DNA of 45,762 bases from a virus. Location: IMG/VR virus record IMGVR_UViG_3300040985_000986, positions 1-45,762 of that record; one strand, 5' to 3'. The notes below the pieces were generated by a model. That model searched no databases. It saw only the letters and a program-made list of their open reading frames with translations, and was not told the DNA's origin. A program made the translations under genes and the position numbers. Of this stretch, positions 12,342-42,921 are shown piece after piece (within the stretch, counting starts at the first letter, position 1; the number at the start of each line of letters is the position of its first letter).

Positions 12342-12375
12342 CGATGACCCCCACCCCTAACTAAGGACTGAGACC

Positions 12376-12648: not shown

Positions 12649-12694
12649 GCGGCGGACTAGACACCGCCAGACACAACGCTACTCTACTGAAGCC

Positions 12695-13545: not shown

Positions 13546-13778
13546 TGAACCTCTACGAAATCACCGGCATGGCCGACCGCGACCGCGCCATAATCGCGGC
13601 GCCTCACCCTACGGCCGCGGACGAGCTCTGCCCGTTCTACGTCGACACCATCGATCAGATCGGCACGGTCAACGTCGAAGAGGCGCGCGTGCTGCTCGCA
13701 GTGAACGAGCACGACGTCGCCGCCGACGGCGTCTGGGTTCGCGTCGACGTCATCGACGACAGCGGGCTGATCTCGTGA
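13543..13778 (+). CDS. Hypothetical acidic protein (78 aa; the real part of the 227-aa track ORF).
   Basis: MMNLYEITG... begins right after the previous stop. The upstream part of the track ORF overlaps the DUF6011 gene in an Arg/Pro-rich frame. Its stop overlaps the GTG start of the SNF2 gene (GTGA). Confidence 0.5.
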
Positions 13779-15103: not shown

Positions 15104-15112
15104 CATTAGTCC

Positions 15113-15140
15113 TTGACACTCCTGGGCATGTTCTTACAGT
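15113..15140 (+). promoter_or_regulatory. Sigma70-like promoter candidate.
   Basis: TTGACA (15113..15118), a 16-nt spacer, then TACAGT (15135..15140). It sits in the 62-bp gap before the gene at 15166. Confidence 0.4.
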
Positions 15141-15165
15141 CCTGCCCCCAACCCACTAGACACAT

Positions 15166-15627
15166 ATGAAAATCTCCATCGACGTCACCCCCGAGTCTCC
15201 CGAAGAACTGGCCCGCCTGTTCGCTTTCATCTCCGGCCGTGATGGCATCGAGTTACCCCCACTGGCAGCGGCAGCTGTGGCTAAGGCTTCGGTGGCCGAG
15301 AACGCAGCCGCAGAAGCCGAAGAGATCACGACGGCGACCAAGAAGGCCGCCAAGAAGGCGACCAAGAAGGCGACCAAGAAGGCGAAGAGCGCCGACACCA
15401 AGGAGGCCAAGTTCGCGGAGGCGAAAGCTGAACCCGCCGCAGACTCGCGTAAGCAGGTCGAGAACGACTTGCGCGCGTTCGCAGCGGAGCACGGCATGCC
15501 ACAGTTGCGCGACGCCCTCAAGGACGCGGCGCTGCCCCGCCTGCAGGATGCGAGCGACGACGACCTGCCCAAGTTCCGCGCCGTCCTTGACGGGTTGCGT
15601 GGCGCACAGCAAGGGGATCTCCTCTAG
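15166..15627 (+). CDS. Ala/Lys-rich protein with a KKA(A/T) repeat (153 aa), possibly nucleic-acid binding.
   Basis: TKKAAKKATKKATKKAK is encoded by 12-bp tandem repeats at about 15343..15385. It is the first gene of the DUF2800/DUF2815/polymerase block. Confidence 0.6.
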   Translation: MKISIDVTPESPEELARLFAFISGRDGIELPPLAAAAVAKASVAENAAAEAEEITTATKKAAKKATKKATKKAKSADTKEAKFAEAKAEPAADSRKQVENDLRAFAAEHGMPQLRDALKDAALPRLQDASDDDLPKFRAVLDGLRGAQQGDLL

Positions 15628-25700: not shown

Positions 25701-28700
25701 ACCTGCCGTCGTCCCACAACTGCCGAACTTGCACTCGGTCCAACACCATCACGTCGTTGAACCCCGCGACAAGCAAAGTAAACGACACGACCTTGTTGTC
25801 GATGCCTACGCCTTCGCTCATCAGAGCAAACTCTCTGCGGATCTGCTGGCCCGTTTGCTGCGGGTCAGACAGCATGTCGTGCAGCTTTTGCAGACCTGTC
25901 ACGCCATTCTTGTCTTTCTTAGCGAGCTTGAACAGGAACGACTTGCCGAACGCGTTAAGGTTGTGCCCCGAGCTCGCGCCTGGCATGCCGCTACCTTTAG
26001 GTGCGACCTTCTTCGACCATCTCAAATACGCTTTGACATCTTTTTTCGTGAACGTGCCGGCCGCAGCTTTTGCTATCCACTCTTCGGCGCCCTTAAACGC
26101 GTCGATGAACAGCGACTCTTGGGTGTAGGGGCTGACGCCACGGGACAAGAACGACCAGAGGAACAACTTGCCTGTGGTCGCTACGTCAATCTTGCCTTCT
26201 GTGTAGAGTTTACGAAACAGCGCCGCGTTCTCGAAGCCGTGGGTGGCGTCTTCGATCTGCCCCTTCGACAACTTACCCAGCTTCTGTGCCATCCGAGAGC
26301 CTGCTAGGTCTCGGATAAACGCGTAGGGTGGCACCGGCACTTCTGCGGATGCGAACGCTTCCGCCTGCATCAGCGACCACGCTTCTTGGCTTGTGTGCGC
26401 GTCTGGGTGCGCGGCGAGTAGGGCGTCGACTGCGGCAAGCTGCGCGGTCGCGTTTTTGTTCGTTGTCTTCTGCCCGATATTAGGCTTCTTGGGCAGCTTG
26501 ACCCGGCCATACAACCGAACGCGGAGCTTGGGCCAGAATCCTAGCTTGTTCCCTCGCGTCACTCGTTGCCCCGGCTTCATCTCGCGCGAGCTAGTTTTCT
26601 TCCCGCCCTGCTGGAACGTTGTCGATGTTGCAGGCGTGGGCTTGGCCCGCGTGAGCAACTGCAATGTCCCGGTGCTGTCCTCCATGCGGAATATCAGATC
26701 TCCGCGGGTCAGTTGGTCTTCATTTAGTGTGTCGTCCGGTGCCTTAGCCAAGCGCTCTTCCGGCGTCAAGGATTGGCGCGACTGCGTCATGCGCGCCTCC
26801 GCTTCACCCGCGAGGCGCTCGTAGAGCTCGTGAAGAAGCACCTGCTGCTGCTCCGTTGTCTTCCCTCGTAGCTCAACCCGGCCAATAATATCTTTGAGCG
26901 TCGTTTGCGGCCACATCGCAGTGCCCAACGTCTGCTCGTCGAGATTAGCGAGTTCGCGGCGCAGTTCGATGAACTTGCGCTGCACTTCGGCGAAGTCGGC
27001 ACGAAGCAGCTTCTCGCGAGCGCTTTGATGCACGACTAGCGGGCGGCCTGTGGGGCCTGAGTAATGCTCAAGCGCGAGCTTGAGCCCCGCCGCGTCCAAC
27101 GCGTAGTCGACAAGCTGGCGAAGTTTGACAACGTTGGCGTTGTTGTTTGGGTCCGCCGCCATCTCATCCAACTTATTATGCGCCGTTGTGCGCGCGACCT
27201 GCAGTTGTCTGACCACGTCGTAGGCAAACATGTCGGGGTTACCCCCCGCAGCGAAACCCTCGCGGTGCTGGATTATGTGCTGGATCTCATGCAGCAAGAC
27301 GTCGCGCTGCTCTGCTTCGGTGACCAGGTCGCTCGATATCCCGATGCGCGCCGGCTTACCTCCAGAAGGGCGCAGGTAATAGCCGCGCGAGCCAGGGGCC
27401 ATATCCTCGACGACCACCTCGATGTTTGCGAGCTCCGGGTATGCCGCGAATAGCTCTGGGTGATCCAGCACTCGGTCGAGCTTTGATGGCTTCGACGCTG
27501 TCGCTTGGTCAACCCGAGCTTCGGCGTTCGCCAGCCCCGACCGCGCCGTGCGCAGCTCCTTCTGTAGGTGGGCTATGAGCTTTGTCCTGTCCATCCCGTC
27601 TTTTTTTGACTTCTCGTATGCGTCGAACACTTGGTCCGACAGTCGCTGGACCTCGCTACGTCGCCGCGAGACCGCCTGTTTGCGCTTCTCCGACTCGTCT
27701 TTGCGTTCTTGTTTCGCGTCCGGGTAGTTGGGGAGGTAGGGCACCGACCGCATTTTTGCGTTGTGGTCTGATAGCTCCCATCGCGCCTTGCCGTCGGGCC
27801 CGACGTGCCACCCTGTTGCTTGGCGGATCTCTTCCGCCGTCGCGCCGGCGAGGTCCATCGCTTTCGCACGCTGGAAAGCTGGCATGTCGGCGGAGGCGGC
27901 GCCCGTGCCGGCGAACTGGTTGAACACCTTCGTCCTGTCGAAGTCTTCCGGCATTGCCGTGACGAAGGTGTCTGGGTCGAACCCCACCAGCTTGGCCAGC
28001 TGTGACGGCAAGATCAAAGTCCCTTTGACGACCGACGCCTGCTCGGCCCTTGCGCGCAGCCCCTGGACGAGCACCGTCGCCGCATCGCGCGCGGCCCGCG
28101 CGTCGCGAACGCCTGCCTTGATCGTGTTCGCCGTGATGTTGTCGATCAGGCCGGCGGTGTCTTTGTCGACTTGGTCTCGCAGATCGCCGGCCTTCTTCAG
28201 CCCCTTCTTCAGCCGCTTCTGCTCGTCAGTGAGCGCCGCTTCCGCAGCCTCCATCTCAGTCAGCGTGTAGCTGTCGGCAGAAGGCTTGACGTGGTTGACC
28301 AAGCGATCTTGGAACTCCGTCTCTGCGATCTCGCCGCTGAAGAACACGGCGCCATCCAGCACGATAGTCGGCTGCTTCTCCGCCGGCTGGGCCAGCTGCT
28401 CGGCTAACCCAGGGAACACTTCTTCGAGCTCTTCGACAGTCAAGCCGGTGTCGTCTAGCGCCTTGGTGAACTCTTCCCTCGGGACGTGCACTTCTTGCAG
28501 CTTGGTGCCGCGCCACATCTTGCGCATGAGCATCACCATCTTGCTCGGCGCTCGCTGTTGGTAGGTGCTGCCCTTCACTCCTTCCTGCACTTCCTTGTAG
28601 ACCGTCCCCTGCGCAGCTGCCGCTCGGATCTTCTTGCGCTCTGATAGATGCCGCAGTGCCGGCCCCATCTGACTGATCAGGCCGACGCCGATGAACGCCT

Positions 28701-30066: not shown

Positions 30067-32309
30067 TAATTCCCGCTCCGTTTGTTGGCCGCGGAAAAGT
30101 CAGCGCCCTGCGCCTCGTTAGATGTAGAGGTCCATGCATCGTAGTCCTCAATGTCGCCTCCCGTCGCAACCTCAACAGGTTTAGCTGATTTCAACGCCAC
30201 GACATCATAGCGCATACGCTCGATGGCGCTGTCGACCGCAAACCTGCGCGTCTCCGCTTCTTGCGCGGAGATGTCGGGTGCTTCAGGGTCCCCATGCTGT
30301 GCGATAGCGTAGCCTCGGTAAACTGCATCTTGGCCCCTCTGATCCCATGCATAAGCAGCGGGCCTCGCAGGCGTCGCCTTTAGTTCTTCGTAGATTCGCA
30401 GTGAGTCAGGGTGCACCTGCTGCGCAACGTAGTCGAAGTCTGCACCTACCGAAGGGTCGACATTTGCCGCGAGTGGGTTCATATTTTCGGTGAGCTTCTG
30501 CGCTTCCGCCAAGGTTGTCGGCCTGTCGTAACGGAGCCAAAGCTCCTCCGCGCGTCGCGAGATGGACTTAGGGTCGACCTCGCGGTCAGGGAAGTAGAGC
30601 GTCTTTGCTACTTGCTCCATGTGCTCGCGCACGTCCATGCTGATGTCTGTCATCTGGAGTCGTCCGTAGCGCGTGTCGCCGCGCACCTGCGAAGCCACGG
30701 TTGGGTCCATCACGGCCGCGAGCTCGCGCGGCACGGGGTGGTCCCCGTCCCCGTAGGACCAGATTGTGTCGCTGAACAGCTTGTCGAGCGCTTCGATCTT
30801 CTCGTCATGCGTCTGGCCGCGTGCGTTGATCACGCCTAGCGCCGTGTCAACCATGCGTAGGTCGACGACGGGCTTGTCGGGGTCGCTTCTGTCGAGCGCC
30901 CACGCATACCCCTTCAGCTTCTGCCGGACTATCGACTCCAGGCTGACGCGGTCGCCTTCCTTAAACGTGATACCGTGCGCGTCTGTGTAAGCTCGGCGCA
31001 CAAACTTTGCTTTCTCTTCCGACATGCCCGCCGTGATCTTCGTTAACGCGGCCGGGTCTGGGATTCGCACGCGGAGGAGCTCCAAGTTCTTCGTGTCGTA
31101 AGCCAGCGCGATGTTGCGGTAGGTGTTATCCGCGTCCTCCTTACCGGATTTGGTCAACATGCGACGCAGCGTCAACTGACCAGCGCGCGTCGACATCAGT
31201 CGCCGAACAGCATCCGGGTTACGTTCCTGCAAGTCTGCAATTCCCAGCCGTGGGTCTTTGCGCAACTCTTCGGTTAGTGGGTCGGCGGCTTGCGCCACGG
31301 CTGCGTCTTCCGACGCCTTGCGATCTTGGACCTCTGCGTCGACCAGCGTGTTCGCCCGTTGATAGGTAGCAGCGTCAATATCGCCCGCGTCGAGTTTATC
31401 TTTGAGCTCTTGGCGCGCGTCGGCGTGCATCTGTGCCGTGCCGTAGCCGTCAAGCTGGGGCCCCATCTCATAGCGACCCAACGTGTCCATCGCCAACTTC
31501 TGCGCTTTCTCGTTGGTCTTTTCGACCTTGCCCATCGCCGCTTGCGCCTTCTGTTCTCTGCGCAGCCGGTTGACTAACTTCGCACGGCTAGCTTCTTCGA
31601 TGTGCGTGCCCCTGCCTTCTTTGTCGAGCTCCTCCTCCGCTTTGTCTAGGTCGCCCAGGTCGAGCAAGGTCTCCGCGTAGGTAAACTGAGCGGTCGACAG
31701 CGTGTCCTTGTAGAGCTCTTGGCGCTGTTCTTCGGACATCCCAACTACGCGCCCGTATTCGTTGATCTCGTCCCTCAAGTCGACGCGCGCACCCCAGTCG
31801 CCTGCCGCGACGTCGTCCGATAGCTGGCCATAGCGCACCTTGGACTGCGCAGCATTCGCCACCTGCGACTGCTTCGCCCAGTGCAGTCCCGCGGCCGCCT
31901 GGGCTCGGGTGAAGTCGACGGCCGTTGCTTGCTCGAACATCTCGCGAGTCTCGTCGTCGTCAAACGACGCGCGCAACTTCTTGTTCACCTCTGCGAGCTC
32001 ACGCTCGAAGTCACTGATGCCGTCGCGCGCGGCACCACCCTGCTTCGTCAGGTAACCGCTATCTCGGTCCTGCAGCAGTCGACGGATCTCTTGCGCCGCG
32101 CGGACCTGGCCTTCTTTGGCCTTCGACACGCGGGCGTTTCGCATGCCCTTATTGCCGATCTCGACAAGTTTACTGCCTGCCCTTGCCGCGGTCGAAGCCG
32201 CCTGCCCGAGCATCTGGATCCCTTCCGTCTGCTCGAATTGCTGCACCTGCGGTGCCTGGAGCGACACCATATTGGGCGTTGTCTTCTGCACGCCTGGGAC
32301 GCGAATCAT
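30066..32309 (-). CDS. Internal virion protein, T7 gp15-like by position and size (747 aa).
   Basis: Helical, charged, Q/A/E-rich sequence. It lies between the 214-aa and 3,425-aa genes, after the nozzle gene. T7 gp15 is of similar length, from memory. Confidence 0.55.
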   Translation of the reverse strand: MIRVPGVQKTTPNMVSLQAPQVQQFEQTEGIQMLGQAASTAARAGSKLVEIGNKGMRNARVSKAKEGQVRAAQEIRRLLQDRDSGYLTKQGGAARDGISDFERELAEVNKKLRASFDDDETREMFEQATAVDFTRAQAAAGLHWAKQSQVANAAQSKVRYGQLSDDVAAGDWGARVDLRDEINEYGRVVGMSEEQRQELYKDTLSTAQFTYAETLLDLGDLDKAEEELDKEGRGTHIEEASRAKLVNRLRREQKAQAAMGKVEKTNEKAQKLAMDTLGRYEMGPQLDGYGTAQMHADARQELKDKLDAGDIDAATYQRANTLVDAEVQDRKASEDAAVAQAADPLTEELRKDPRLGIADLQERNPDAVRRLMSTRAGQLTLRRMLTKSGKEDADNTYRNIALAYDTKNLELLRVRIPDPAALTKITAGMSEEKAKFVRRAYTDAHGITFKEGDRVSLESIVRQKLKGYAWALDRSDPDKPVVDLRMVDTALGVINARGQTHDEKIEALDKLFSDTIWSYGDGDHPVPRELAAVMDPTVASQVRGDTRYGRLQMTDISMDVREHMEQVAKTLYFPDREVDPKSISRRAEELWLRYDRPTTLAEAQKLTENMNPLAANVDPSVGADFDYVAQQVHPDSLRIYEELKATPARPAAYAWDQRGQDAVYRGYAIAQHGDPEAPDISAQEAETRRFAVDSAIERMRYDVVALKSAKPVEVATGGDIEDYDAWTSTSNEAQGADFSAANKRSGN

Positions 32310-32953
32310 TAGCTCTCTCCTGCGAAGACACCGGTGGACGCTGCTTGGCCGAACATGTTACCTGCTGACCCTAGCGCCACGAGGCCAGGGCTGACAGCGC
32401 TGGCCGCGCCGCGGGCGTTCTGCGCCGATACACGCGCGGCCTGTGCGGACAGGCGCGAGTTGAGCGCGGCACGTCTTGCTTGCTGCGACTGCCTGCGCAC
32501 GTTGGTTTTGATCGTGCGCGCCTCCATCCGCCGCACGATCTCCATGGACGCCCGCACCTCTGCCGAGCTCCCGGCGCCGAGTAGGACGCCGCGGCGCGCG
32601 CTGCCGACTATCGCTTGTGCGCGCTCCTGCCCTGCCTGCATCCCGCGGCGTGAGATCTCGCTGTTGCCGGCCTCGATAAGCAGCAGTGCCTGGTCTTCGT
32701 AGTCGCGCGCCTGCATGTCGGCCATCGTGCCCTGGAACTCTAGGCTCACCGCTTTGTTCTTCAGTGTCTGCCGTTTCGTCAACGCACTGAAGTAGCCGGT
32801 CACTGCCGCCAACCCCGCCGCGGACCACGCGAGAGCCTGGCCCATCCCCTTGTTCTCTTCGGCTATGGCGAAGTCCTCGCCGAGGCTCAGGTCGTCGTTC
32901 GCCCCGAAGAGACCACCGTCTAGCGGGTCGTTGATGTGTATGTCGTCAGTCAT
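32309..32953 (-). CDS. Internal virion protein, T7 gp14-like by position (214 aa).
   Basis: Hydrophobic segment ALAWSAAGLAAVTGYFSAL followed by an Ala/Arg/Gln-rich helical region. TAATG overlap with the next gene. Confidence 0.5.
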   Translation of the reverse strand: MTDDIHINDPLDGGLFGANDDLSLGEDFAIAEENKGMGQALAWSAAGLAAVTGYFSALTKRQTLKNKAVSLEFQGTMADMQARDYEDQALLLIEAGNSEISRRGMQAGQERAQAIVGSARRGVLLGAGSSAEVRASMEIVRRMEARTIKTNVRRQSQQARRAALNSRLSAQAARVSAQNARGAASAVSPGLVALGSAGNMFGQAASTGVFAGES

Positions 32954-35900
32954 CTAGTCTCCGAAGGATACACGCGCCGCAAGCGACACGACACTTGCGG
33001 GGAAAGGCTGGGCCTGCCGCACTAGTAGTTGCCCGTCTTCAGTCCACTTACCCGTCACCAAAGTGCGCTTCTCCCCTGTAGCGGGAGAGGCGCCGTCTTG
33101 CGCGTCTGTGACGGGCTGGAGATTGTCTGCGTCTGGGCCCACTGTCAGCCCTGCGGACTCGTAGAGCCGCAGCCAAGCCTTCTCGATGTTCTTTTCGCGG
33201 CCGGTGCCTAGTCCCTCGACCTGCGCCGCTATCGGCAGCGTCTGTAGGTCGCAGACGTATGGCAGCCCTGCGTGCACGTTGAGGCCCGGAGTATCCAGGT
33301 CGAAGTATGCCAAGTCTGGGTTCTGCACGTCCACTGACGGGGTCGCCGCCGGCGCAACCGCGGAGTCTGCGACAACGGAGCAAACTGTGCCTGCTAGCCA
33401 CGCGGGCGTGTAGACGCGCTTGCTTGCGAAGCGCCATCTGTCATACCAAAATGTGTAGCCGATTAAGTCGACCCCTATGGTGTCGAGTAACTTGCCGGAT
33501 ACGAAGGCGTTGTTGGTGAATCCGGTGATCAGCACCCGGAAAGTCCAAAGCGCATCGGAGGGGCCCCCGCTGATGTGGACCTCCTTGCCAACGTCCTGGG
33601 GGTCGAAGGCGACTTGGGTGTTCGTGTTGTCGGTGTTGCGCCCTTGGAGGGTCACATCGGCGCCCGCTGAAGAGCCGGCAGACGAGTCAAGGCGTATTCT
33701 GGTGTTGTAAGGCGGAAGCTGCGTCGTGTAGGTCGAAGTGTGCGCGTCGAGGCAGGCAGCCTGTTTGACGTCGGAGATGCTGAACTCTTGGATGCGCTCC
33801 ACCGTGTGGTGAACAGAGCCGTCGATGCCCCTGCGATTCACGGCAGCGTAGACCACGTCTTCGTCACCCTCGGGCACAACGGCGATCGAATCGAAAGTGC
33901 CGGCTGTCTCGTGCTGGTGCCACCCTTCGACCTTCTCCTCGGGCACAAACGTCATGCCGAGCAACTTACCGCTCGACGAACACGCCCACACGCAAGGGAA
34001 CGGCGCCTTGCCTGCCCCGAAGTCTGTTACCGTGAAATCGTCGAACAGATGCGGGGCCCGTAGGCTGACGCTCAGTGACTCGAACGCGGCGCGACGCGCT
34101 TCGTAAGCGAGCTTGCGGACGTGCCCTCCGCGCGCTGCGCAGTATACGATGTGATTCGAAAGCGCAGCCGGCTGCGCATGGTTAGCCCCGTCGTAGCCTT
34201 CTTGCCTTGCGAAGATGGTAGCAGGTGTCAGCGCGCCGTCATCGGCCGCGCGCACGCGGAACTCACCAGACAACGTCAGCAGGACCAGGTCGCGCATGCC
34301 GACGATATGGCGGACTGTCTGCGCTTGGTTCGAGGCGAGCGTGAACTTCAGCCTGTTGTCAGCCTGCACAGGTAGCGTGTAGGTGAAGTTGGTGTCAAAG
34401 CCCGTTTTCGACCCCCAGACCGTCTGAGGCCGTGCCGTGGTGGACGCCAAGAACATCCGCTGCTCGTGCCCTCCAACAGCGGACGGGTAGTTCGTCCCAG
34501 TGATCGAAGTATCAAGGAGCGGAGGCGTGCGCCCCAGATCGGGCGCGATGTTGTTGTCCACAAACCTCATGATGCCGGTGGTGGTCTCGTCGATCACTGC
34601 GTCGCCGATGTAGCCGAACAGGCCGTTCTCCTTCTTGTATATCCGGTAGCGGTCTTTCGCGTCAGGCGCGTTATAGCTCGTCACTGCGATTGTGTTAGAT
34701 GCGCCGGCGACCTCTAGGACATTTTTGAATCTGAACTCGGTTTCGTCGGGAGGCAACGACTCATCGCCCTCCTTGTTGACAAGGGTCGCCGTGTATTCTT
34801 GCGTCGTGTCAGCGCTTGAACTGCTATACACCCACTTGGCCGATAGATTAGTTGCTGCGACCGTCGGACCAGGCCAAAAGACATTCCCTTTTAGATCGCC
34901 AAGCTGCATTTTGCCCGAAACTGTGCCCGCTGTGCTATTTGACGATAAGCAAACGTAGTATTGGTCTACTCGAAACTTGCGCTCCCAAAGTGCCATCCCC
35001 GCCGGGGCGCCGCCCGTGCTAGGGTCCACGAGCAATGGGAGTTGATTTTGTAGCGCAGGGGAGCCCATCGCGCCGAGCTCCTCTACAAAGATGACGTCGC
35101 CCGGCGCAGCGACCAAATTGGAGGCTCCGGCAGGGAGTTCGAAATCGAACAACGTTCCTGCTGTCCCTGTGGACCCTATGAACGAGTTCTGCACGCCTCT
35201 TGCGGACGAGGAGTCGGCGGTAGATATGGCGGGCACCGTAACCGACGCGTCCACCGTGACTCTGCTGGCGATCCATGTCGTGGCCCCGCCGCGTATGATC
35301 TCCACCAGCGGGTAGGTGCCTGTGTTGTTCGCTATAGTCAGCACGTCACCGTTCTGACGCCATACCAACTTATCCAGGTCGGCTTGTGCGTAGCTCACTG
35401 GCAGTCGGATCTCTAGCGAGCCGTCGTCAGGTTGCCTGTGCCACCCCGCGGCCGTGGGGGCTGTGCCCCCGGCCGTGACAGACTCAGCGGCGTGGTAGAC
35501 CCCTTGGTCAAGTGCTACTGAGCCCTCCCAGTAGACGAGACTACCGGCCTCGTAGTTTGTAGCCGCATCCCACGCAGGGGGTAGGTCGGCTGCCTTGAAG
35601 GTGCGTAGATACCCAACGAAGTCTTCGGCGAAGCCGATCGATACCAGGCCCGTCGCCGACTGCCCGGTGTATAACTGAAAGCGACGCGTCGTGAAGCCGC
35701 CCCCCGGGCCGTTCACGTAGTATGACTCCGTGCCGAAGACCCCCCAGGGTAGGTCGCCGCCGGCTGAGACAAGCACCTTGACGAGGGTGTCACCGTCATA
35801 GTAGTGGCGCCTTCTACCGGTCAAAGTATTGGCGGTTGCGTTGACGGCGATGGTCACGGTCCCCAACTCGAAAGGAACTGCCCAGCGCAGAGCGACGCCC

Positions 35901-36193
35901 CGCGTGAAGAAACGCACAACTGTCTCGCCAGCTTTGTTGCGGCTGACGGCGGCGACTAGACTCTGACCCGTAGAGTAGATAAACGGGATGAGCCGCGGCG
36001 CGCTATGAGACCAGCCCCCCAACGTCGCGACCCACCGCAACCCTGGCCGTGTGCGGGCCGGCCCTTGGGGTTTGACCACCCAGTTTTTCAGTTGTGCAGC
36101 GCCCGATCGATACTGCGCCAGGTCGGGCCTGCCGTAGAGCTCAGGGGATATCTCACCACCGGCAAAAGAAAGCTGCACTGTGCGTGTGTTCAT
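32954..36193 (-). CDS. Tail tubular protein B / nozzle-like protein (1,079 aa).
   Basis: The N-terminus LSFAGGEISPELYGRPDLAQYRSGAAQLKNWVVKPQGPARTRPG parallels the T7 gp12-type opening (...LKGGISQQP...RYPDQG...NGW...GLQKRPP). It directly follows the adaptor gene. Confidence 0.7.
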   Translation of the reverse strand: MNTRTVQLSFAGGEISPELYGRPDLAQYRSGAAQLKNWVVKPQGPARTRPGLRWVATLGGWSHSAPRLIPFIYSTGQSLVAAVSRNKAGETVVRFFTRGVALRWAVPFELGTVTIAVNATANTLTGRRRHYYDGDTLVKVLVSAGGDLPWGVFGTESYYVNGPGGGFTTRRFQLYTGQSATGLVSIGFAEDFVGYLRTFKAADLPPAWDAATNYEAGSLVYWEGSVALDQGVYHAAESVTAGGTAPTAAGWHRQPDDGSLEIRLPVSYAQADLDKLVWRQNGDVLTIANNTGTYPLVEIIRGGATTWIASRVTVDASVTVPAISTADSSSARGVQNSFIGSTGTAGTLFDFELPAGASNLVAAPGDVIFVEELGAMGSPALQNQLPLLVDPSTGGAPAGMALWERKFRVDQYYVCLSSNSTAGTVSGKMQLGDLKGNVFWPGPTVAATNLSAKWVYSSSSADTTQEYTATLVNKEGDESLPPDETEFRFKNVLEVAGASNTIAVTSYNAPDAKDRYRIYKKENGLFGYIGDAVIDETTTGIMRFVDNNIAPDLGRTPPLLDTSITGTNYPSAVGGHEQRMFLASTTARPQTVWGSKTGFDTNFTYTLPVQADNRLKFTLASNQAQTVRHIVGMRDLVLLTLSGEFRVRAADDGALTPATIFARQEGYDGANHAQPAALSNHIVYCAARGGHVRKLAYEARRAAFESLSVSLRAPHLFDDFTVTDFGAGKAPFPCVWACSSSGKLLGMTFVPEEKVEGWHQHETAGTFDSIAVVPEGDEDVVYAAVNRRGIDGSVHHTVERIQEFSISDVKQAACLDAHTSTYTTQLPPYNTRIRLDSSAGSSAGADVTLQGRNTDNTNTQVAFDPQDVGKEVHISGGPSDALWTFRVLITGFTNNAFVSGKLLDTIGVDLIGYTFWYDRWRFASKRVYTPAWLAGTVCSVVADSAVAPAATPSVDVQNPDLAYFDLDTPGLNVHAGLPYVCDLQTLPIAAQVEGLGTGREKNIEKAWLRLYESAGLTVGPDADNLQPVTDAQDGASPATGEKRTLVTGKWTEDGQLLVRQAQPFPASVVSLAARVSFGD

Positions 36194-39100
36194 CGACGAT
36201 ACGAGCCGGGGTTGCTGCGGTGGCGCAAGAAGGTTGGGACGTGGTTGCTGATGTCGACGTCGCGCTTGTTGTCGCTGTCGTGCTTGGTCGCTGTCCGCAA
36301 CGCGCGCTCGGCCATCTCAGTCGCCGCGAGAGCTTTCTTCGACCCCTCTTCGCCCTTGAGGATGGCGCCAGCCAGATGGAACACTAGGCGCCACGCGAGG
36401 GCGGACGTGAACGTCGTGCTCCACTTGGTCGGGTCCGTAACCTTCGCCACGTAAAGCATCAGCGCTTCGTCAAGATCGGTCAGCACCATCCGATCGCCGT
36501 TGTCGTCAAGCTCGACCGTGTATTCGTGCTGCCCCGTGGTGCCCATCGTCTTGTAGTTGTAGCTGACGTCGGAGCGCACGAGCCCAAGCACCGACGCAAT
36601 GCCCTCGGGGTAGTCGTATGCGTATTTGTAATCTACGCGCGGTGACGCCGAACGCTTCGTCGGCTTGATCGAACGAAGCGCAAAGTCCCACGCATGGCGT
36701 TCGAGGAGCTCGTCACGCGCTAACGGCAGGAACTGCCTGCACAACTCGGCCTCGCGGGACGTATCGGTGTCGACGTTAACCATCCGCCCAGGCTCTCCCA
36801 GGTAGGACAAGGCCATGTTGCAGACTTCGGTTTCGTTGTATCCGCTACGTTCCAGTGCTTTGTAAGCGACGAACGCACGCTTACCTAGCGTGTCCATCTC
36901 GGCGCCGTGGTAGTGCAGGCCGTCCGCCGTAGGGTTGCCTTCGGAGGTGTCGCGCTCTGCGTGCACTTCCAAGTCAGTGCCGACTAGCGAGCGACTATAC
37001 GGATCCGCCTGAGCTTCCGCCTCGATGGCCGCGTTGACCGTCTTGGCGTATGGCCACACGTTAAGTGATTCGTTGATCGTGGCGTGCAACCACTTAATCC
37101 GCTCGGCTTTGATCGGCGACAGGCCCCTGTCGTAAAGGGCTTGGCGCACAGCCAGCTTGAGCCGGTTCAAGTTCTGCCTATACGTTGTCGACGTGTATTC
37201 TTCCGTCGCGTCCGCTTCGCCCTGGTTGAAGTGCACGACAACATCTTTGACCGTGGAACCCTCCTCCGTCAGCGCCAGTTTGACGCCGTCGAGCGTGTCC
37301 TCCAGGCGTGCGAAGCAGCCGTTGTCTTCACCGGGCGCCCAGCTGATCTGCTGGTCGGGGTCGTGCCAGCCGAACGAGGAGCGGCCATCGCCCGCTTGGT
37401 GCACTTCCCTGTGCGCTATGGAGGTGTTGCCGAAAGCCAGAGGGACGAAGAGCGTCCGGCGGCCGGTGTAGTTGTATAGGTCAAACGATAACTGCACCCC
37501 CGCAGTGACACCCGACGCCTGCTGCGCTGTCTCTTCGCCATAGAACGAACCTGCAACGTAACCGTCGAAAGGCATGTAGCGCCGGGGTATGGCGAACTGG
37601 CTGGGGTAGTTGAACCCCGGCGGGTGCGGGTTGAACCCGTTGTCGTTGTCGACAGTCTCCGCGTAGTGCAACCCGCTGCCCTCCTCGCCTGTTCTTTGCA
37701 GGGCTGCACCGCCGTAGGTGGCGGCGATATTGAAGGCGCTCCCCACAGCTAAAGCTGAGTAGTAGGTTTTACCCGGCGTGAGGCCGTTAGGTAGAGTGCC
37801 CGTAGTGTAGAAGCGAACCGATGTCCTGTCGGGCGCGAACATCCCCAGCACAACGATATTGCCTTGGGTTGGTGTGACAGCCCATGTCACGGTAACGGGC
37901 GCCGGGCCAGCTTCGCGGCTCCCGCGAGCTAACCCCTCGAAGGGTGCCCAAGGAAGCAGCTGGCAGAACTTCCTGAACGGGCGTTCCTGGTCGCCTACTG
38001 GAGTGGGCTCCAGCACGAAGATGTCGTTCTTCTGGGGCTCCGCCGTCCAGGCACCATCGTAGTGAACTTTCGCGAGCCCTGTCGAGGCATAAGTGACGTG
38101 AGTCCCGTGCTTCCACTGCCCTTGGTTAGCGCCCGACGCACACCGCAGGCGTAACCCTGACACTGACCCAGCAAACCGTTCCGTCTCGGCGAGCGTCACA
38201 ACACCTAGGGTCGGGACCGCGATATTCTTCCAGTCGGCGCCGCCGCGCTCGGAAGAAACCAGCCAACCTACATATGCGTTGATGCGCTCTATCGAAGGGG
38301 AGTCCCCGACAGTTGTCACCCATGTGATGGTGAGGGCAGTTCCGCCTTTATCCGTTGCGAGACGCAAACGCTCGCTGCCAGTGACTGATGTGTCGACTTC
38401 CACGACGTAATAGTCACCCGCCGGGAGGTTTGTCGGAGGAAAACCTTGAGTCGGGCCGTAGCTAACGCGCACCTGCTCGCCCACGGCAAACTCTTGCGGG
38501 GTGGACACGACAACGTAATTATTGAGAGTTTGCCCTGACGTTAGCGCCGGAGGGACGACAGGCGCCAGCTGTCGCGTGGGCCATAAAGTTCCAGTCACGT
38601 AAGGAACCGTCCACTCCCCAGTGCCGCTTGTGGGCGCGGCCGTTAGCTGGATGGCAGTCCCCGCATTCGCGTCAGCGAGCGAGGCGGCTACTTTGAACTC
38701 GGTGTCACTGACGCGAATAGCGAAATACGCTGTGCTCGCGGTTAAACCTCCGGGCACCTTTGCAACGTCCTCACTAGATTTCAAAGGCGAACCCGTCACC
38801 AAGTTATGGTTCGCGCTAGCCGTAACCGTCGAGCGAATGACCGAATGGGTTCCGCTACCCCCCGCGGAACTGAAATCTTGGAGAGCGCCAGTTGATGCAA
38901 CTGAAAGATTAAAACTATTGAGGCGGCGAATTGTGTGTGTGCCACTACCGCTAGTGGAACCATCAAACACGATATAAGTGCCACTGCCGGATACAGCCTG
39001 AAGTGCAATGCCATACTCCAAAATGCCGCTGCCGCCAGGGGCAACTGGGCTGGTGTAGTAGGTCGTGTTCTCGTCTAGTCCAGTCGGCAACCCCCCTGAA

Positions 39101-40470
39101 CCTGCGACCAGCCGCACTGGCTCGTCAAGCATATACACTTGGTCAGCCGTTGACGAGCCTAGCGCGATGTATCCTGCCGAGGTTGCGGCTATGAACTTGG
39201 CGTTTGCCACATCCTTGCGGACGTTGCGTGCGTAGTAAGTAGTTGCTGTCGAGAGAGGGGTGGGCAGACTTACTGTAGTGGTAAGGCGGACAGGCTCGGC
39301 GTTCTGTATTGGGGTCTCTGTGCCGAAAGTTGCCACTCCGTCGCTAGACGATGGGGCGGCGCCCCATGTGCTGTTGGCCCCCGTGTATTCCATGTCGACA
39401 CCCACAACAGTCGCCGGTATTGCCGAATCCCCGCTAACTCCGCGGCCTCCCCGGAGAGGGCTATCTGAAGGCACAAACCATCGGTAGCCGCTAGTCGCGG
39501 TAGTCAACTCTTTGGCGGAGAGTGTCACCGCAGGGTTGTTGTTAACGAAACCGCCGAGAAATGCGTCGAACACTAGGGGGCTTTCCGTGCTCCCCGCATT
39601 ATGCTGGAGTTGCAAGGGGACCGTGAACTCTTCCTCGTCGCTTTGCGCGGGGTTGAAAGGGGGGTCGACAACTAGCCGAGCACCGCCGCTGGCCTGACTC
39701 CAACTAGCGATCCCGAGCCCAGTGGGCGCGTAAGTGTGGGTAGAGCCTGTGCGCTTGCGCGTGATTAACGAAGGGGCGTCGAGGTCGTTGACCTTCCACG
39801 CGTAGAGCGTGCCACTGGTCGCGGAGATGTCAACCGCAGCGCCTTCGGGCCAAGTCTCGATGTTGAACGTGCTGGCGGTAACGGCGGTGACTCTGAAAGG
39901 CCCCGAACTGGGCAGCCCCAAGTTCGTGAAGTAAGAACCGAAGACCACAATGTCGTTGACATCGAAGACGTGAGTCGAGTTCGTCGTTATGGTGCTGCCG
40001 GTGGCACTTACACCCTGCGCGGACTGGCGACCCTGTTGGACGATGAAGTTCGTCGAGAACTCCCGTGCGGTGTTAGGCGCCAACGCGTTGGTTGCCGGCA
40101 CGACGTTGTAGGTGCCGGGCCAACTTCGCGCGTGCCCCGATGCCGTCTGCAACGTGCCGATAGGGTTGTAGAACGTCGCGACGCGAACAGCATCGACAGC
40201 CACGCCGCGGAGGTTGACAGTCTGCCACTGGCCGTTGATAGCAGCCCCCATCTCAGTTCCGACGTCACCTACCTGCGGCCCGCCTTTGAAGGTCGCGGCA
40301 AGGGTAAAGTCGTCGCGGTATGAGCCGGTGCTGAACTGCTTCACTCCCGAGCGTGCAGTGTTAGGCGACCTGATCGCGATCTGTGGGTGTTTGTCTTCCC
40401 ACCCTTGGATGTCGCCGACTGGTGATGCGTTCGACTGCCCGATCTCAAGAACTAGCGTATATTCAACCAT
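36190..40470 (-). CDS. Fusion protein (1,426 aa): SGNH/SASA-type esterase blocks split by a roughly 1,000-aa fibre-repeat region, with a C-terminal T7 gp11-like tail adaptor domain.
   Basis: Block I LVLEIGQSNA (40426..40440), block II-like LAFGNTSIA, block III HFNQGEADA (about 37207..37230), block V DGLHYHG (36904..36924). The C-terminus NMALSYLGEPGRMVNVDTDTSREAELCRQFLPLARDELLERHAWDFA resembles tail tubular protein A. Confidence 0.7.
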   Translation of the reverse strand: MVEYTLVLEIGQSNASPVGDIQGWEDKHPQIAIRSPNTARSGVKQFSTGSYRDDFTLAATFKGGPQVGDVGTEMGAAINGQWQTVNLRGVAVDAVRVATFYNPIGTLQTASGHARSWPGTYNVVPATNALAPNTAREFSTNFIVQQGRQSAQGVSATGSTITTNSTHVFDVNDIVVFGSYFTNLGLPSSGPFRVTAVTASTFNIETWPEGAAVDISATSGTLYAWKVNDLDAPSLITRKRTGSTHTYAPTGLGIASWSQASGGARLVVDPPFNPAQSDEEEFTVPLQLQHNAGSTESPLVFDAFLGGFVNNNPAVTLSAKELTTATSGYRWFVPSDSPLRGGRGVSGDSAIPATVVGVDMEYTGANSTWGAAPSSSDGVATFGTETPIQNAEPVRLTTTVSLPTPLSTATTYYARNVRKDVANAKFIAATSAGYIALGSSTADQVYMLDEPVRLVAGSGGLPTGLDENTTYYTSPVAPGGSGILEYGIALQAVSGSGTYIVFDGSTSGSGTHTIRRLNSFNLSVASTGALQDFSSAGGSGTHSVIRSTVTASANHNLVTGSPLKSSEDVAKVPGGLTASTAYFAIRVSDTEFKVAASLADANAGTAIQLTAAPTSGTGEWTVPYVTGTLWPTRQLAPVVPPALTSGQTLNNYVVVSTPQEFAVGEQVRVSYGPTQGFPPTNLPAGDYYVVEVDTSVTGSERLRLATDKGGTALTITWVTTVGDSPSIERINAYVGWLVSSERGGADWKNIAVPTLGVVTLAETERFAGSVSGLRLRCASGANQGQWKHGTHVTYASTGLAKVHYDGAWTAEPQKNDIFVLEPTPVGDQERPFRKFCQLLPWAPFEGLARGSREAGPAPVTVTWAVTPTQGNIVVLGMFAPDRTSVRFYTTGTLPNGLTPGKTYYSALAVGSAFNIAATYGGAALQRTGEEGSGLHYAETVDNDNGFNPHPPGFNYPSQFAIPRRYMPFDGYVAGSFYGEETAQQASGVTAGVQLSFDLYNYTGRRTLFVPLAFGNTSIAHREVHQAGDGRSSFGWHDPDQQISWAPGEDNGCFARLEDTLDGVKLALTEEGSTVKDVVVHFNQGEADATEEYTSTTYRQNLNRLKLAVRQALYDRGLSPIKAERIKWLHATINESLNVWPYAKTVNAAIEAEAQADPYSRSLVGTDLEVHAERDTSEGNPTADGLHYHGAEMDTLGKRAFVAYKALERSGYNETEVCNMALSYLGEPGRMVNVDTDTSREAELCRQFLPLARDELLERHAWDFALRSIKPTKRSASPRVDYKYAYDYPEGIASVLGLVRSDVSYNYKTMGTTGQHEYTVELDDNGDRMVLTDLDEALMLYVAKVTDPTKWSTTFTSALAWRLVFHLAGAILKGEEGSKKALAATEMAERALRTATKHDSDNKRDVDISNHVPTFLRHRSNPGSYRR

Positions 40471-40484
40471 GGTGCTCTCTATGT

Positions 40485-40518
40485 AAAAGCCCCACCCCCG
40501 CGTGGGCGGTGGCGGGGC
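40485..40518 (-). terminator. Rho-independent terminator candidate after the capsid/decoration block.
   Basis: The minus strand reads GCCCCGCCACCGC-CCAC-GCGGGGGTGGGGC (13 stem positions with one mismatch and one G-U pair, tetraloop) followed by TTTT. The placement is analogous to T7 Tphi after the capsid gene. Confidence 0.5.
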
Positions 40519-40555
40519 GTCGACCTGCTAGCGTCCCTCTCTGAAGCTGTCGTCC

Positions 40556-40768
40556 CTACAGCAGGTCGTCGATACCATCGTCAACCGCTGCCACGTCTCG
40601 GGGCACGCTCGATTGGATTGGCGACGTGTCGCCAGCTTCCAGTTCGAGAAACACGTCGGGGTTGGGCTCCCCTGAATATGCAAACTCTTCGCCCTCCTTG
40701 CGGATGACATGAGCCACATAGGCTTTGCGAAGAGCGCGCACGCGGCGCGACGTGTTCAATTCGACCAT
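40556..40768 (-). CDS. Hypothetical small acidic protein (70 aa).
   Basis: ORF between the second decoration-like gene and the terminator. Confidence 0.5.
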   Translation of the reverse strand: MVELNTSRRVRALRKAYVAHVIRKEGEEFAYSGEPNPDVFLELEAGDTSPIQSSVPRDVAAVDDGIDDLL

Positions 40769-40773
40769 ACGTT

Positions 40774-41262
40774 TTAGCTACTAGTGCTTGCTGGGTAGAT
40801 ACGCGGCCTGGTGCTCGTGTCGAGCGTCAGTTTGGTTGTGAGTGAGCCGCCGCTAAGGGCGCCCTCCCCTACCGTGTATTTCAGCCCGAAGTAGCGGCGA
40901 CCGTTTAACACGCTTGTCGGGTCGCCGTCGTGCGCGTAGATCGTGAAGTCTTCGCCCCATTGGTAAGGACCAAGAGCAAAGAAATACTGCGAGTAGAGCG
41001 TCAGGTTGGTTACCGCCAACATGGGGGCCACGACAATCTCTTGCGCGTTCGTCGTCAGCGCGGCGTTGTCTGCGACAACTCCCGAGACGGTGAGCGTCGC
41101 GCCGCCTCCGAAGTCCGCGCCCACGACCTGCATGTGCAGGAAGAGAGGTGCCCCTTCGCCGATGTCGCGAACGCTCTGCAAGTCGATCACGTTCGTCGAA
41201 TCGGCTGTAGTCGTGATTGCTTGCGCGTCTGACAGGCGCCAGTTGTGTTCAATGTATGCCAT
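40774..41262 (-). CDS. Bbp16-like capsid decoration (cement) protein candidate (162 aa from the ATG at 41262).
   Basis: AITTTADSTNVIDLQSVRDIGEGAPLFLHMQV resembles the Bbp16-type signature (S.N.IDL...RD.G.G..L), from memory. It lies downstream of the capsid gene. Confidence 0.5.
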   Translation of the reverse strand: MAYIEHNWRLSDAQAITTTADSTNVIDLQSVRDIGEGAPLFLHMQVVGADFGGGATLTVSGVVADNAALTTNAQEIVVAPMLAVTNLTLYSQYFFALGPYQWGEDFTIYAHDGDPTSVLNGRRYFGLKYTVGEGALSGGSLTTKLTLDTSTRPRIYPASTSS

Positions 41263-41306
41263 TTGTGGATCCTGTAAGGCGGGCTGCCGAAGCAGCCCGC
41301 TACGGG

Positions 41307-41861
41307 TTAGACGACGAAGCCCGACCGGTGGAAGTGCTTCAGACCTTGGACACCAGTGTCCTTGCCGATCGTCAACCACGCCTGCACTTTGCCCTGCGTG
41401 AAGGCGTTGACGCTGTCAGTGTTGCTCGCCTTCAGCGAGATGAACTTGCCTAGAACCGAGCCGTCCAAGTCGACCTCTAGCGGACGCAACGCGATCAAGA
41501 CCGCGTTGGCCACCCCAGGTAGCAAGATGCCGACATCGGATGCCGCGCCGTCCGCTACGGTTAGATCCGCGCAACTGAACGCCTGCGTCTCGCCGATGCG
41601 AGTCGGGTTGGTGCCTGCGTTATCGTCGGCCAAGAGAACGTCAAAGCGCACGTCGGCGGCATTACCGCCGGCGGAGGTGAACGTCTCAACGACGTTGAGC
41701 GCTACCCACAGGTCCATGCCGCCGCCGATGTCGTCCCACGACTGTGTGTCGGTAGGGAGTGTGATCGCGTCGGGCGCGTAGGCGGTGCCACTGGCAGCGA
41801 GCGCCCCGAGATCCCAGTCGGATGACCGGGTAAAGTTTAAGTGATGGTCACGTATTGCCAT
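41307..41861 (-). CDS. Second possible capsid-associated protein (184 aa from the ATG at 41861).
   Basis: Strong RBS AGGAGG 6 nt before the ATG at 41861. Immediately follows the capsid gene. Its composition is similar to the next gene. Confidence 0.5.
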   Translation of the reverse strand: MAIRDHHLNFTRSSDWDLGALAASGTAYAPDAITLPTDTQSWDDIGGGMDLWVALNVVETFTSAGGNAADVRFDVLLADDNAGTNPTRIGETQAFSCADLTVADGAASDVGILLPGVANAVLIALRPLEVDLDGSVLGKFISLKASNTDSVNAFTQGKVQAWLTIGKDTGVQGLKHFHRSGFVV

Positions 41862-41871
41862 TTCATTCCTC

Positions 41872-42921
41872 CTAGGAAACCACGTCTTCAGTGTTGAGGA
41901 TCGCGTCGCAGCGACGGATCGGGATGCCCATGAAGGACAAGTATTGGCGCGCCGTGCCGTAGCTCGACAAACCCTGCTCAATCGTCAGGACTGAGGACTG
42001 CTTCTCCATCGCCATACGCGACAGTGAGGAGTGGACGGTGCGGTTCATGTAGAACGCCGGCTTGCACATGCCCAGGTTCGGAACGCGATAGATCGCTTCG
42101 GCCATCTGATGGATGACGTTGCTGGTGTAGGCGTTCAACGCCTGCCCGCCGGTGAAGCCAGCGAGGTCGTCGACCTTGATGTTGCAGATGCGCGCGGCGT
42201 AGCGCCAATCCTTCACGACCAAGCCCATCTTCCAGCAGAACCAGTCGACGAGCGCCTGCATCTTGCCGGTGTAGGTGCCGGTGCCGTCAGCGGCGGAGAA
42301 GACGTCGACAGATTGCTCGCCGAGATCCTTCTGCTCCAGGCCGGCGGAGCTCCCCTTCGGGAACACAAAGTGACAGGTCTCGTCAGACCAACCGATCAGG
42401 TAGATCGAAGTCTGCGCACCGGTGCCGGTGCCGGCGCAGCTGAAGATGTTCTGTGCATTACCTGCGGACAGCGAACTGTAGCGCGGGGCGATGCCCATGA
42501 ACTTCTCAGGGTTGGCGGCCGTGTTCCCGTAGAACATCGTGGTCGCCATCTCTTGGTTCATGGCTTCGAGGCGCATGCGCGCTTCCGACAGGCGCAAAGC
42601 GCGCTCATCGTCTTCGAGGCTGGCGAGAGCAATGTCGACTTCGGAGCGCGACTCCAGCATGCCGATGCCTTCATCGATCTGTGCGGTCGTGCCGTGGCTC
42701 GGGTAGACGCCTTGGTTAACCTGGCGCCAGTAGACGTCAGGCAGACCAGTCGCGACCGTCACCCGGTGAGAGGTGGGGCCATTGGCCATCTTGAAGACGC
42801 CGTCGTCGAGAATCTCGTTCGACTGCGATAGAATGTTCGCGATGTCGGCCATTGAGCCGTTCGGATCGCGACGCTTGGCCCAGTCGGCCAAAGTGAGGTT
42901 CGTGGTTGGAAGAGTTGCCAT
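41872..42921 (-). CDS. Major capsid protein (349 aa).
   Basis: Size, position after the scaffold gene, and conserved-looking segments (LADWAKRRDPNG, FYGN...PEKFMGIAPRY, SIYLIGW, DWRYAARICNI, FYMNR) recalled from podovirus major capsid proteins. Confidence 0.85.
   Translation of the reverse strand: MATLPTTNLTLADWAKRRDPNGSMADIANILSQSNEILDDGVFKMANGPTSHRVTVATGLPDVYWRQVNQGVYPSHGTTAQIDEGIGMLESRSEVDIALASLEDDERALRLSEARMRLEAMNQEMATTMFYGNTAANPEKFMGIAPRYSSLSAGNAQNIFSCAGTGTGAQTSIYLIGWSDETCHFVFPKGSSAGLEQKDLGEQSVDVFSAADGTGTYTGKMQALVDWFCWKMGLVVKDWRYAARICNIKVDDLAGFTGGQALNAYTSNVIHQMAEAIYRVPNLGMCKPAFYMNRTVHSSLSRMAMEKQSSVLTIEQGLSSYGTARQYLSFMGIPIRRCDAILNTEDVVS

Follow-up and report, generated by a model that had tools for sequence, protein, structure and literature searches.

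Can a podovirus tail adaptor carry, within its own chain, an enzyme whose two halves lie 904 residues apart, and what would such an enzyme do at the neck of the virion? The question is raised by a marine phage, in a gene on the minus strand (36190-40470) of IMG/VR virus record IMGVR_UViG_3300040985_000986, of which positions 1 to 45,762 (the window, the whole stretch of 45,762 nucleotides) were analysed. The adaptors of podoviruses are seen as passive rings, onto which trimeric fibres encoded by other genes are docked. An earlier reading of this DNA, made from the letters alone (the original prediction), had seen here a tail adaptor fused to an SGNH esterase that is interrupted by fibre repeats. 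We put the probability at about 0.7 that the gene product, hereafter the fusion protein, is an adaptor with a 1212-residue arm comprising one discontinuous SASA-type esterase together with accessory domains, and that it serves as a deacetylating host-recognition arm. The main features of the gene are as follows (aa, amino acids; ORF, open reading frame).

36190-40470, minus strand: whole gene, esterase-arm/adaptor fusion; intact ORF with an ATG start, 1426 aa
40351-40470, minus strand: esterase piece 1, aa 1-40, with beta-1 and block I (predicted strand at 3-11; gain in Pfam score)
40426-40440, minus strand: block I, GQSNA, aa 11-15, with the putative nucleophile Ser13
37639-40350, minus strand: insert, aa 41-944 (904 residues), a beta-rich base domain with nested repeat modules
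36850-37638, minus strand: esterase piece 2, aa 945-1207 (Pfam SASA match at aa 1058-1122; Foldseek; conserved catalytic columns)
37414-37440, minus strand: block II, LAFGNTSIA, aa 1011-1019, with G1014
37207-37227, minus strand: NQGEADA, aa 1082-1088, within block III (HFNQGEADA, aa 1080-1088)
36904-36924, minus strand: block V, DGLHYHG, aa 1183-1189, with D1183-x-x-H1186
36193-36834, minus strand: tail adaptor domain, aa 1213-1426 (phrog_394, 8ck1_E and tblastn)

Tail adaptor domain

Judged by sequence, residues 1213-1426 are a podovirus tail adaptor of the BPP-1/Carin-1 family. Residues 1213-1418 match phrog_394 ('tail protein', E 5.6e-34) over family positions 4-188 of 190, and among solved structures the family profile finds the connector of the marine podovirus Carin-1 (8ck1_E, E 4.1e-24), with profile positions 1015-1184 aligned to residues 3-170 of the 222-aa chain. 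By tblastn, BPP-1 Bbp14 and genes labelled 'tail tubular protein A' or 'adaptor' were matched with some 30% identity. The matches, in 70 phage records, were confined throughout to the C-terminal 15% of the fusion protein, and the arm is absent from every record of the phage collection searched. The position of the gene, with capsid and decoration genes on one side and the nozzle gene on the other, is that of podovirus tail adaptors.

The original prediction had called this end, which includes the motif NMALSYLGEPG (aa 1218-1228), a T7 gp11-type adaptor. The adaptor assignment stands; the sequence family is that of BPP-1 and Carin-1 and not that of T7 gp11. No direct sequence match to T7 gp11 was obtained, Pfam returning SASA alone and the PDB profile search returning, as adaptors, 8ck1_E and 9efk_T alone. 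The relation to T7 gp11 is positional and functional, drawn from gene position and from the annotations of the hit records. A linker of about 7 residues (SGYNETE) separates esterase and adaptor. An internal start yielding an adaptor-only product was considered and dropped, as neither a ribosome-binding site nor a conserved start was found around residue 1213.

A discontinuous SASA-type esterase

Block I had been placed at the extreme N-terminus and blocks II, III and V some 1,000 residues further on, and both placements proved correct. GQSNA (within the motif YTLVLEIGQSNA, aa 4-15) is conserved in the relatives, and the esterase resumes 934 residues after GQSN, with block III in the variant form QGEAD (Q1083 to D1087). 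The sheet of the SGNH fold has beta-1 as its central strand; aa 945-1207 alone would therefore be an incomplete domain.

A first line of evidence comes from the Pfam SASA profile (PF03629, gathering threshold 24.8 bits). The natural protein, or the distal piece alone, scores 20.9-21.0 bits and covers profile positions 106-167 only. When residues 1-39 are joined to 970-1210, the score is 28.0 bits and the match extends over positions 5-167; joined constructs overall reach 26.9-28.0 bits, above the threshold. Joined family members match SASA in 13 of 14 cases (best E 6e-18), and several natural homologues carry a precomputed PF03629 match. The natural sequence falls below the threshold because its two parts are 904 residues apart.

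A second line comes from predicted structures, built on shallow alignments of 14-16 sequences. The AlphaFold model of aa 1-1200 has a mean predicted local distance difference test (pLDDT) value of 57. In it, a strand is predicted for residues 1-10 (pLDDT 80), values fall below 50 for residues 13-93, and the strands of the SGNH domain comprise residues 3-11, 1006-1012, 1073-1082, 1126-1130 and 1159-1162, the distal region also having the helices of such a domain. For a second model the joined fusion sequence was aligned with full-length natural homologues, their inserts falling out as insertions. Modelled in this joined form, as had been proposed, the two pieces give a single SGNH-like fold with a predicted template-modelling score (pTM) of 0.76 and a pLDDT of 90 for residues 1-10. 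The prediction is an alpha/beta/alpha fold with a five-stranded parallel sheet that includes beta-1.

Structure comparison by Foldseek places the 1-1200 model closest to SASA-type proteins (1zmb, 2apj, SIAE and XAC1771; E about 1e-4 over some 210-225 columns). The match to 2apj (E 9e-5, 210 columns, template-modelling score 0.56) becomes E 9e-9, 321 columns and 0.67, now from end to end, with the joined model, for which NanS, SIAE and XAC1771 follow, with 1zmb and 7kmm also near the top and chains of the Pan3 tailspike and the N4 tail among the further matches. Sequence-only searches of the PDB are weak: the whole-family profile matched no SGNH structure, and with the joined profile 2apj came up at no better than E 0.057. 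It is Pfam, motifs and fold comparison that carry the esterase assignment. An hhalign comparison of the joined profile with relative P0122 aligned the distal piece only (99% probability), with no bridge to block I.

In prediction and in evolution, residues 1-40 and 945-1207 behave as one SASA-type SGNH esterase with one active site, and the model scores point to packing of beta-1 into the distal domain. The fusion protein shares GQSN, QGE.D and DxxH with the canonical SASA/DUF303 esterases (2apj At4g34215, 1zmb, E. coli NanS 3pt5 and mammalian SIAE), which are also its best Foldseek matches (E 9e-9 to 1e-6). It differs from them in sequence, with only 12-18% identity, and in the distance of 904 residues between its two parts.

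Relatives of the fusion protein

An exhaustive library search yielded 469 matches. Among the matches listed and analysed, the distal esterase piece is found in 98 proteins and block I near residue 11 also in 84, and 65 of these 84 two-piece relatives carry a phrog_394-type adaptor as well. Homologue P0001, from Tara Oceans, is 90% identical to the fusion protein and has the same length of 1426 aa; 14 more homologues of 1114-1473 aa share the layout (P0001-P0015, from independent marine and freshwater metagenomes). The homologues lie in a syntenic block of capsid, adaptor, nozzle and ejection-protein genes, and the fusion architecture recurs across dozens of 50%-identity clusters. Unnamed viral relatives are also found in BFVD (A0A516LTA4, E 2e-42). 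The N-terminal sequence MVEYTLVLE.GQSNA is conserved in homologues from independent metagenomes, and GQSN stands at residue 11 in most of the 84 two-piece relatives, which shows the start codon to be real. A published esterase-adaptor fusion was not found in the open-access literature.

The insert and its repeat modules

Between the two esterase pieces the original prediction had counted at least five copies of a fibre-type unit. Six copies were located by an iterated profile (jackhmmer), all with independent E-values (i-Evalues) of 5e-6 or less; a BLAST self-comparison of the insert did not detect the repeats. All five sequence anchors quoted for the units are present, at residues 410, 579, 685 and 900, in addition to TTYYTSPV at 469.

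39784-40002, minus strand: repeat module 1, aa 157-229 (i-Evalue 4.8e-6)
38911-39339, minus strand: repeat modules 2 and 3, aa 378-447 and 439-520 (i-Evalues 8.7e-9 and 8.5e-10)
38587-38838, minus strand: repeat module 4, aa 545-628, the best-conserved copy (i-Evalue 1.4e-28)
38296-38526, minus strand: repeat module 5, aa 649-725 (i-Evalue 6.4e-10)
37642-37836, minus strand: repeat module 6, aa 879-943, directly before the esterase resumes (i-Evalue 1.1e-12)

The insert does not consist of repeats throughout: roughly half of it is a conserved, non-repeat, beta-rich base domain that is present also in repeat-free relatives. By profile alignment to short-insert relatives, the base domain falls into three segments (approximately aa 41-138, 215-354 and 717-850), which align to the repeat-free short-insert relatives P0046, P0059 and P0054. 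Residues 345-720 are the length-variable part among close homologues. In the AlphaFold model the insert reaches a pLDDT of 70-89 for aa 120-345, 630-835 and 855-940, and stays below 50 for aa 348-581.

The module has about 75 aa and follows the pattern HG..tGd.V....g.lP.GL...t.YYV....d.f.LA.s...a..GtAIdLt..GsG. We counted 496 copies, spread over 124 of the 163 collected proteins and in places lined up in tandem arrays of 11 and 27; the stretch of module 4 matches up to 27 tandem copies elsewhere (for example in P0020). A protein made of repeats only matches phrog_2885 'baseplate wedge subunit' and phrog_9370 'tail fiber protein'. These marine-phage fibre and baseplate proteins are built of the same module in long tandem arrays, whereas the six copies of the fusion protein stand singly or in small groups inside the accessory domain of an enzyme. 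Family profile positions 145-206, in or near module 1, match PDB chain 10lj_C ('Tail protein gp15', E 0.003). The module profile itself gave only weak matches against the PDB (phi92 endosialidase 4hiz, E 0.16; 8bke, E 0.37), and no PHROG or Pfam fibre family matches aa 36-945.

In the short-insert relative on contig L003 the esterase-adaptor has no module; three copies are located in its nozzle (12211-15612) and one in a 256-aa capsid-adjacent protein (8417-9187). Since the module also occurs in a nozzle and in a capsid-adjacent protein, a fibre shaft is not established. The term fibre-type remains apt in that the unit recurs in phage fibre and baseplate proteins, but the copies are globular modules of about 75 aa. 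The module moves between virion surface proteins, and we read it as mobile and surface-exposed, and probably glycan-binding, rather than as a fibre shaft. Within the window it is found in no protein other than the fusion protein.

The number of modules follows the distance between the esterase pieces, measured in the 84 two-piece proteins from block I to the resumption motif NP.PPGF.

Spacing of 83-99 aa: 4 proteins, no repeats
Spacing of 248-362 aa: 30 proteins, 0-1 repeat
Spacing of 400-700 aa: 18 proteins, median of 2 repeats
Spacing of 700-1027 aa: 32 proteins, median of 4 repeats (the fusion protein has 934)

Spacing and repeat number are correlated with a Spearman rho of 0.90. The four proteins of the shortest class (P0105, P0109, P0112 and P0122) have nearly canonical SASA spacing, and the longer forms consist of the base insert plus added repeats. 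The series shows growth of the insert by accretion of repeat modules.

A precedent is provided by CE20 esterases, in which an ancillary beta-sandwich is inserted in a discontinuous SGNH domain (PMC12313940). The CE20 enzymes XacXaeA (7kmm), Fl8CE20_II and PpCE20_II (PMC12313940) likewise have an interrupted SGNH sequence that forms a single domain in three dimensions, and an inserted beta-rich domain that varies more than the catalytic core does, and 7kmm ranks high among the structural matches. The differences are several: in CE20 enzymes one beta-sandwich makes up the insert, and further beta-sandwiches flank the catalytic domain on its N- and C-terminal sides, whereas the insert of the fusion family has about 250 aa in its basic form and reaches about 1000 aa by nested repeats, and the fusion enzyme is a virion protein. 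As the chain begins with beta-1 at residue 3 and the last esterase helix passes into the adaptor, we do not file the enzyme as CE20. Two readings had been offered for the split, an insertion of domains into an esterase fold or an N-terminal strand swapped back into a distal esterase. The relatives with 83-99 aa, the graded inserts and the CE20 precedent support the former.

Catalytic residues across the relatives

The catalytic columns were read from an hmmalign alignment of the 98 relatives and the fusion protein. Sixty-seven relatives are evaluable at both sites, and 63 of them keep the serine of block I and the histidine of block V. Three have lost both residues, by differing substitutions (P0012, P0035 and P0041, with GQLN/…S, GQNN/…D and GAEN/gap), one has lost serine and aspartate, and none has lost the histidine alone; the co-loss of serine and histidine has a Fisher p of 8e-5, uncorrected for phylogeny. 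Altogether the nucleophile is replaced in seven members (P0012, P0035, P0039, P0041, P0050, P0096 and P0013), with block I in the forms GQLN, GQNN, GQDN, GAEN, GADN and GQEN. All seven also lack the glycine of block II, and those that can be evaluated have lost the histidine or the aspartate too. Their architecture is retained and, where the sequence is complete, so is the adaptor. In these seven members the esterase arm seems to have been inactivated and yet kept on the adaptor.

The retained architecture invites the reading that the arm is mainly a lectin-like adhesin or scaffold, in which the esterase fold serves for binding or as a structural hub and does not act in infection by deacetylation; it also accords with the composition of the arm, three quarters of which are accessory domains. 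We consider this unlikely, though the strongest of the rival explanations. The fusion protein and 63 of the 67 evaluable relatives have intact Ser, QGE.D, Asp and His, a pattern that indicates purifying selection on catalysis in most lineages, and the joint loss of several residues in few lineages looks like occasional inactivation rather than an ancestral state.

Proposed arrangement of the arm

In the deacetylating arm that we propose, beta-1 and GQSN (aa 1-40) would come first and the chain would leave the esterase through the loop after block I. It would then build about 900 residues of accessory domains, namely the beta-rich base and the six adhesin-like modules of about 75 aa, and return to complete the esterase at 945-1207 with the oxyanion residue Gly1014, QGEAD and Asp1183/His1186, before the linker of about 7 residues leads into adaptor helix 1. 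Since the insert would enter and leave by one esterase loop and the linker is this short, the esterase is expected beside the ring, with the accessory domains projecting.

Solved podovirus adaptors form a dodecameric ring that is bound to the portal clip and to the hexameric nozzle (PMC9509320; bioRxiv 10.64898/2026.02.16.706137). In a related podovirus the lower domain of the adaptor has four helices, of which the N-terminus supplies the first two; the channel is lined by helix alpha-4 (bioRxiv 10.64898/2026.02.16.706137). T7-type tails have one trimeric fibre docked per pair of adaptor subunits. By analogy with these structures, a dodecamer would carry twelve covalent arms that radiate from the outside of the ring, as the adaptor N-terminus of related solved tails lies in the outer helix bundle where T7-type fibres dock. 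The accessory domains would bind O-acetylated host surface polysaccharide and the ring-adjacent esterase would deacetylate it; the binding might thereby be reversible and processive, as described for esterase tailspikes (N4-like phages, epsilon15, Pan3 and N4). The arm would substitute for a separately encoded fibre.

With respect to such a fibre, the original prediction had noted that no T7 gp17-like gene follows the internal virion proteins. This was borne out: past these genes the strand switches and a plus-strand replication block begins, and no fibre gene is found after them. Nor does the arm have the make-up of a T7 gp17-type fibre or trimeric tailspike, as no N-terminal docking domain with shaft or beta-helix was found in it and its predicted domains are small beta modules. 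Other adhesin candidates in the window are limited to three small proteins encoded after the portal gene and the following protein.

44527-45702, minus strand: LamG-domain protein, 391 aa (N-terminal Laminin_G_3, a concanavalin-like lectin domain, E 4e-11)

The gene of the LamG protein stands between the scaffold gene and the portal region. No PHROG family matches the protein, and its sole PDB match, to an S-layer-domain protein, is weak. The protein may serve as a second adhesin or decorate the capsid.

The three small ORFs directly after the portal gene (183-680, 687-1115 and 1129-1587, minus strand; 165, 142 and 152 aa) have no family match. A related phage encodes a 648-aa protein in their slot, which marks a variable locus.

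Several points weigh against the proposed deacetylating arm. In the full-length model the packing of beta-1 is read from confidence values and secondary structure alone, and the joined construct was designed such that this packing is allowed. The alignments are shallow, the mean pLDDT is 57, residues 348-626 are essentially unmodelled, and a third of the arm is without a model. The natural protein stays under the Pfam SASA threshold. The architecture is kept in members that lost catalytic residues, so catalysis is not essential in every member. Finally, the adaptor part retains the beta-rich middle region that is the fibre dock in T7-type adaptors, and the LamG protein is encoded elsewhere in the window; a separate adhesin is therefore possible.

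We hold only tentatively, and with more doubt than belief, the further proposal that the arm is the sole receptor-binding device, such that twelve monomeric enzyme arms replace six trimeric fibres or spikes, and that SASA esterases mounted on three unrelated neck proteins (a BPP-1/Carin-1-type adaptor, an SU10-type adaptor and an Ad1 head-tail adaptor) form an unrecognised, widespread class.

Alternative arrangements

The esterase could also be completed in trans, with beta-1 of one subunit inserted into the esterase of its neighbour and the arms chained together. Predictions were made on monomers only, an excursion of 900 residues gives the necessary reach, and twelve copies would sit side by side. 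We regard such a swap as improbable: P0105, P0109, P0112 and P0122, with their pieces 83-99 residues apart, show the usual SASA spacing, and this implies that each chain folds by itself; discontinuous domains normally come about through inserts that grow by nested modules; and the halves of CE20 enzymes form one domain within a single chain (PMC12313940).

An equally low probability is assigned to the reading that the enzyme targets, for example, O-acetylated peptidoglycan during penetration, or is cleaved off after assembly and acts in free form or bound to the capsid. Further down the Foldseek lists Ape1, a peptidoglycan O-acetylesterase, and PatB do occur, but the leading matches are without exception carbohydrate or sialate acetylesterases of the SASA type (2apj, 1zmb, NanS, SIAE and XAC1771) and the adaptor ring is located at the top of the tail, far from the peptidoglycan. 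For cleavage there is the example of phage phi24B, for which a preprint reports a processed, capsid-decorating esterase (bioRxiv 10.64898/2026.04.10.717836); in the fusion protein, by contrast, the linker has only about 7 residues with no cleavage motif recognisable by eye, and an internal start for an adaptor-only product is not apparent.

That the gene is an artefact, merged by a sequencing or assembly error or endowed with GQSN by chance, has a negligible probability and a frameshift or merger is rejected, since its sole support is the score of the natural sequence below the Pfam SASA threshold, while length and layout are conserved among homologues, P0001 from another data set is 90% identical at an equal 1426 aa, the architecture is seen in dozens of 50%-identity clusters, and GQSN stands at residue 11 in most of the 84 relatives and co-varies with the distal histidine.

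Esterases on other neck proteins and on virions

The same esterase is found on two other neck proteins. P0122 combines a SASA domain of near-canonical spacing (GQSNMEGRG, above the Pfam SASA threshold) with Pfam SU10_adaptor, and P0061 combines a split SASA domain with DnaT_2 / phrog_477 'head-tail adaptor Ad1'. Neck-mounted esterases seem to have arisen on three unrelated anchors.

SGNH esterases are known from podovirus tails (the N4-like phages Moo19/B2, PMC11654681; epsilon15, bioRxiv 10.64898/2026.07.31.742079; Pan3, 9vyh; N4, 9lc0), and the joined model matches chains of the Pan3 tailspike 9vyh and of the N4 tail (9lc0/9yf5). By analogy, the likely role of the fusion enzyme is the same, the modification of host surface polysaccharide. 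The known virion esterases are separate tailspikes or appendages, trimeric where described, and bound non-covalently to the tail, whereas the fusion esterase is of the SASA subtype, lies within the adaptor polypeptide and is split by a 904-residue insert. Known adaptors, in turn, stand alone, with about 200-230 aa, and trimeric fibres encoded separately dock onto them (PMC9509320). With the Carin-1 connector, BPP-1 Bbp14, T7 gp11 and SU10 gp11 the fusion protein shares a gene position between capsid and nozzle and, with the first two, adaptor homology; it differs from all of them by its covalent 1212-aa N-terminal arm. Adaptors, virion SGNH esterases and the discontinuous SGNH domains of CE20 are thus already known. 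What is new is that an enzyme is fused to the adaptor polypeptide, that the insert is so large and has a nested structure, that the family is so broad, and that the same esterase recurs on two further neck proteins.

A separate observation concerns a 150-aa protein encoded in the interval between large terminase and portal (3611-4063, minus strand), which matches phrog_1249 'acetyltransferase' (E 9e-7). A link to the virion acetylesterase is speculative.

The fusion describes a widespread and unannotated family in which the adaptor polypeptide itself would carry enzyme and adhesin modules. For the study of receptor-binding proteins, it implies that the fibre of uncultured marine phages may hide inside the adaptor gene; with respect to symmetry, twelve arms would be expected instead of six trimers. 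The graded insert lengths provide a natural example of a discontinuous enzyme domain growing by nested module insertion. For annotation, domain tools miss the esterase because its halves are 904 residues apart.

Genome setting

An exact direct repeat of 107 bp is present at both ends of the window (1-107 and 45656-45762), and the window therefore holds the whole genome of the phage, which is about 45.65 kb long and either circularly closed or terminally redundant. Its genes are those of a podovirus whose capsid is of the epsilon15/BPP-1 type. Genes for a primase-helicase, the small and the large terminase, the portal and a protease/scaffold protein were recognised, together with the following neighbours of the fusion gene.

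41872-42921: GP7-type major capsid protein
40774-41379: Bbp16-like cement protein
40491-40520, minus strand: G+C-rich hairpin followed by a T run, about 20 nucleotides upstream of the ATG of the fusion gene (read from the sequence and a pattern scan)
32954-36193, minus strand: nozzle gene (phrog_376, E 2e-126; PDB 8ck1_A Tail Nozzle, E 7e-71)
32309-32953, 30066-32309 and 19789-30066: internal-virion (ejection-protein) genes
19789-30066, minus strand: 3425-aa polyvalent protein in the slot of the largest ejection protein (ADP-ribosyltransferase domain ART-PolyVal, E 2.5e-16; LPD22; LPD23)

The order major capsid protein, Bbp16-like protein, fusion gene and nozzle is identical in the contigs L001 and L003 of relatives. 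The adjoining nozzle gene had been predicted correctly, and its ATG overlaps the stop codon of the fusion gene (ATGA). The nearest isolated phages are zth2-2, Limnohabitans phage DC33, the Caulobacter phages Jess A and RapA, and epsilon15-like phages, with a capsid identity of at most 57%. With regard to the host, a scan of representative genomes returned only a 3.7-kb fragment of a metagenome-assembled genome.

The hairpin at 40491-40520 looks like a terminator-like element that separates the capsid and tail gene blocks. It is preceded by a small unannotated ORF of about 70 codons (40557-40768, minus strand). The 3425-aa protein also has a weak M78-peptidase-like motif and appears to be a 'polyvalent', toxin-like protein that is packaged by a 45-kb podovirus; its homologues in related contigs have 2881 and 4452 aa.

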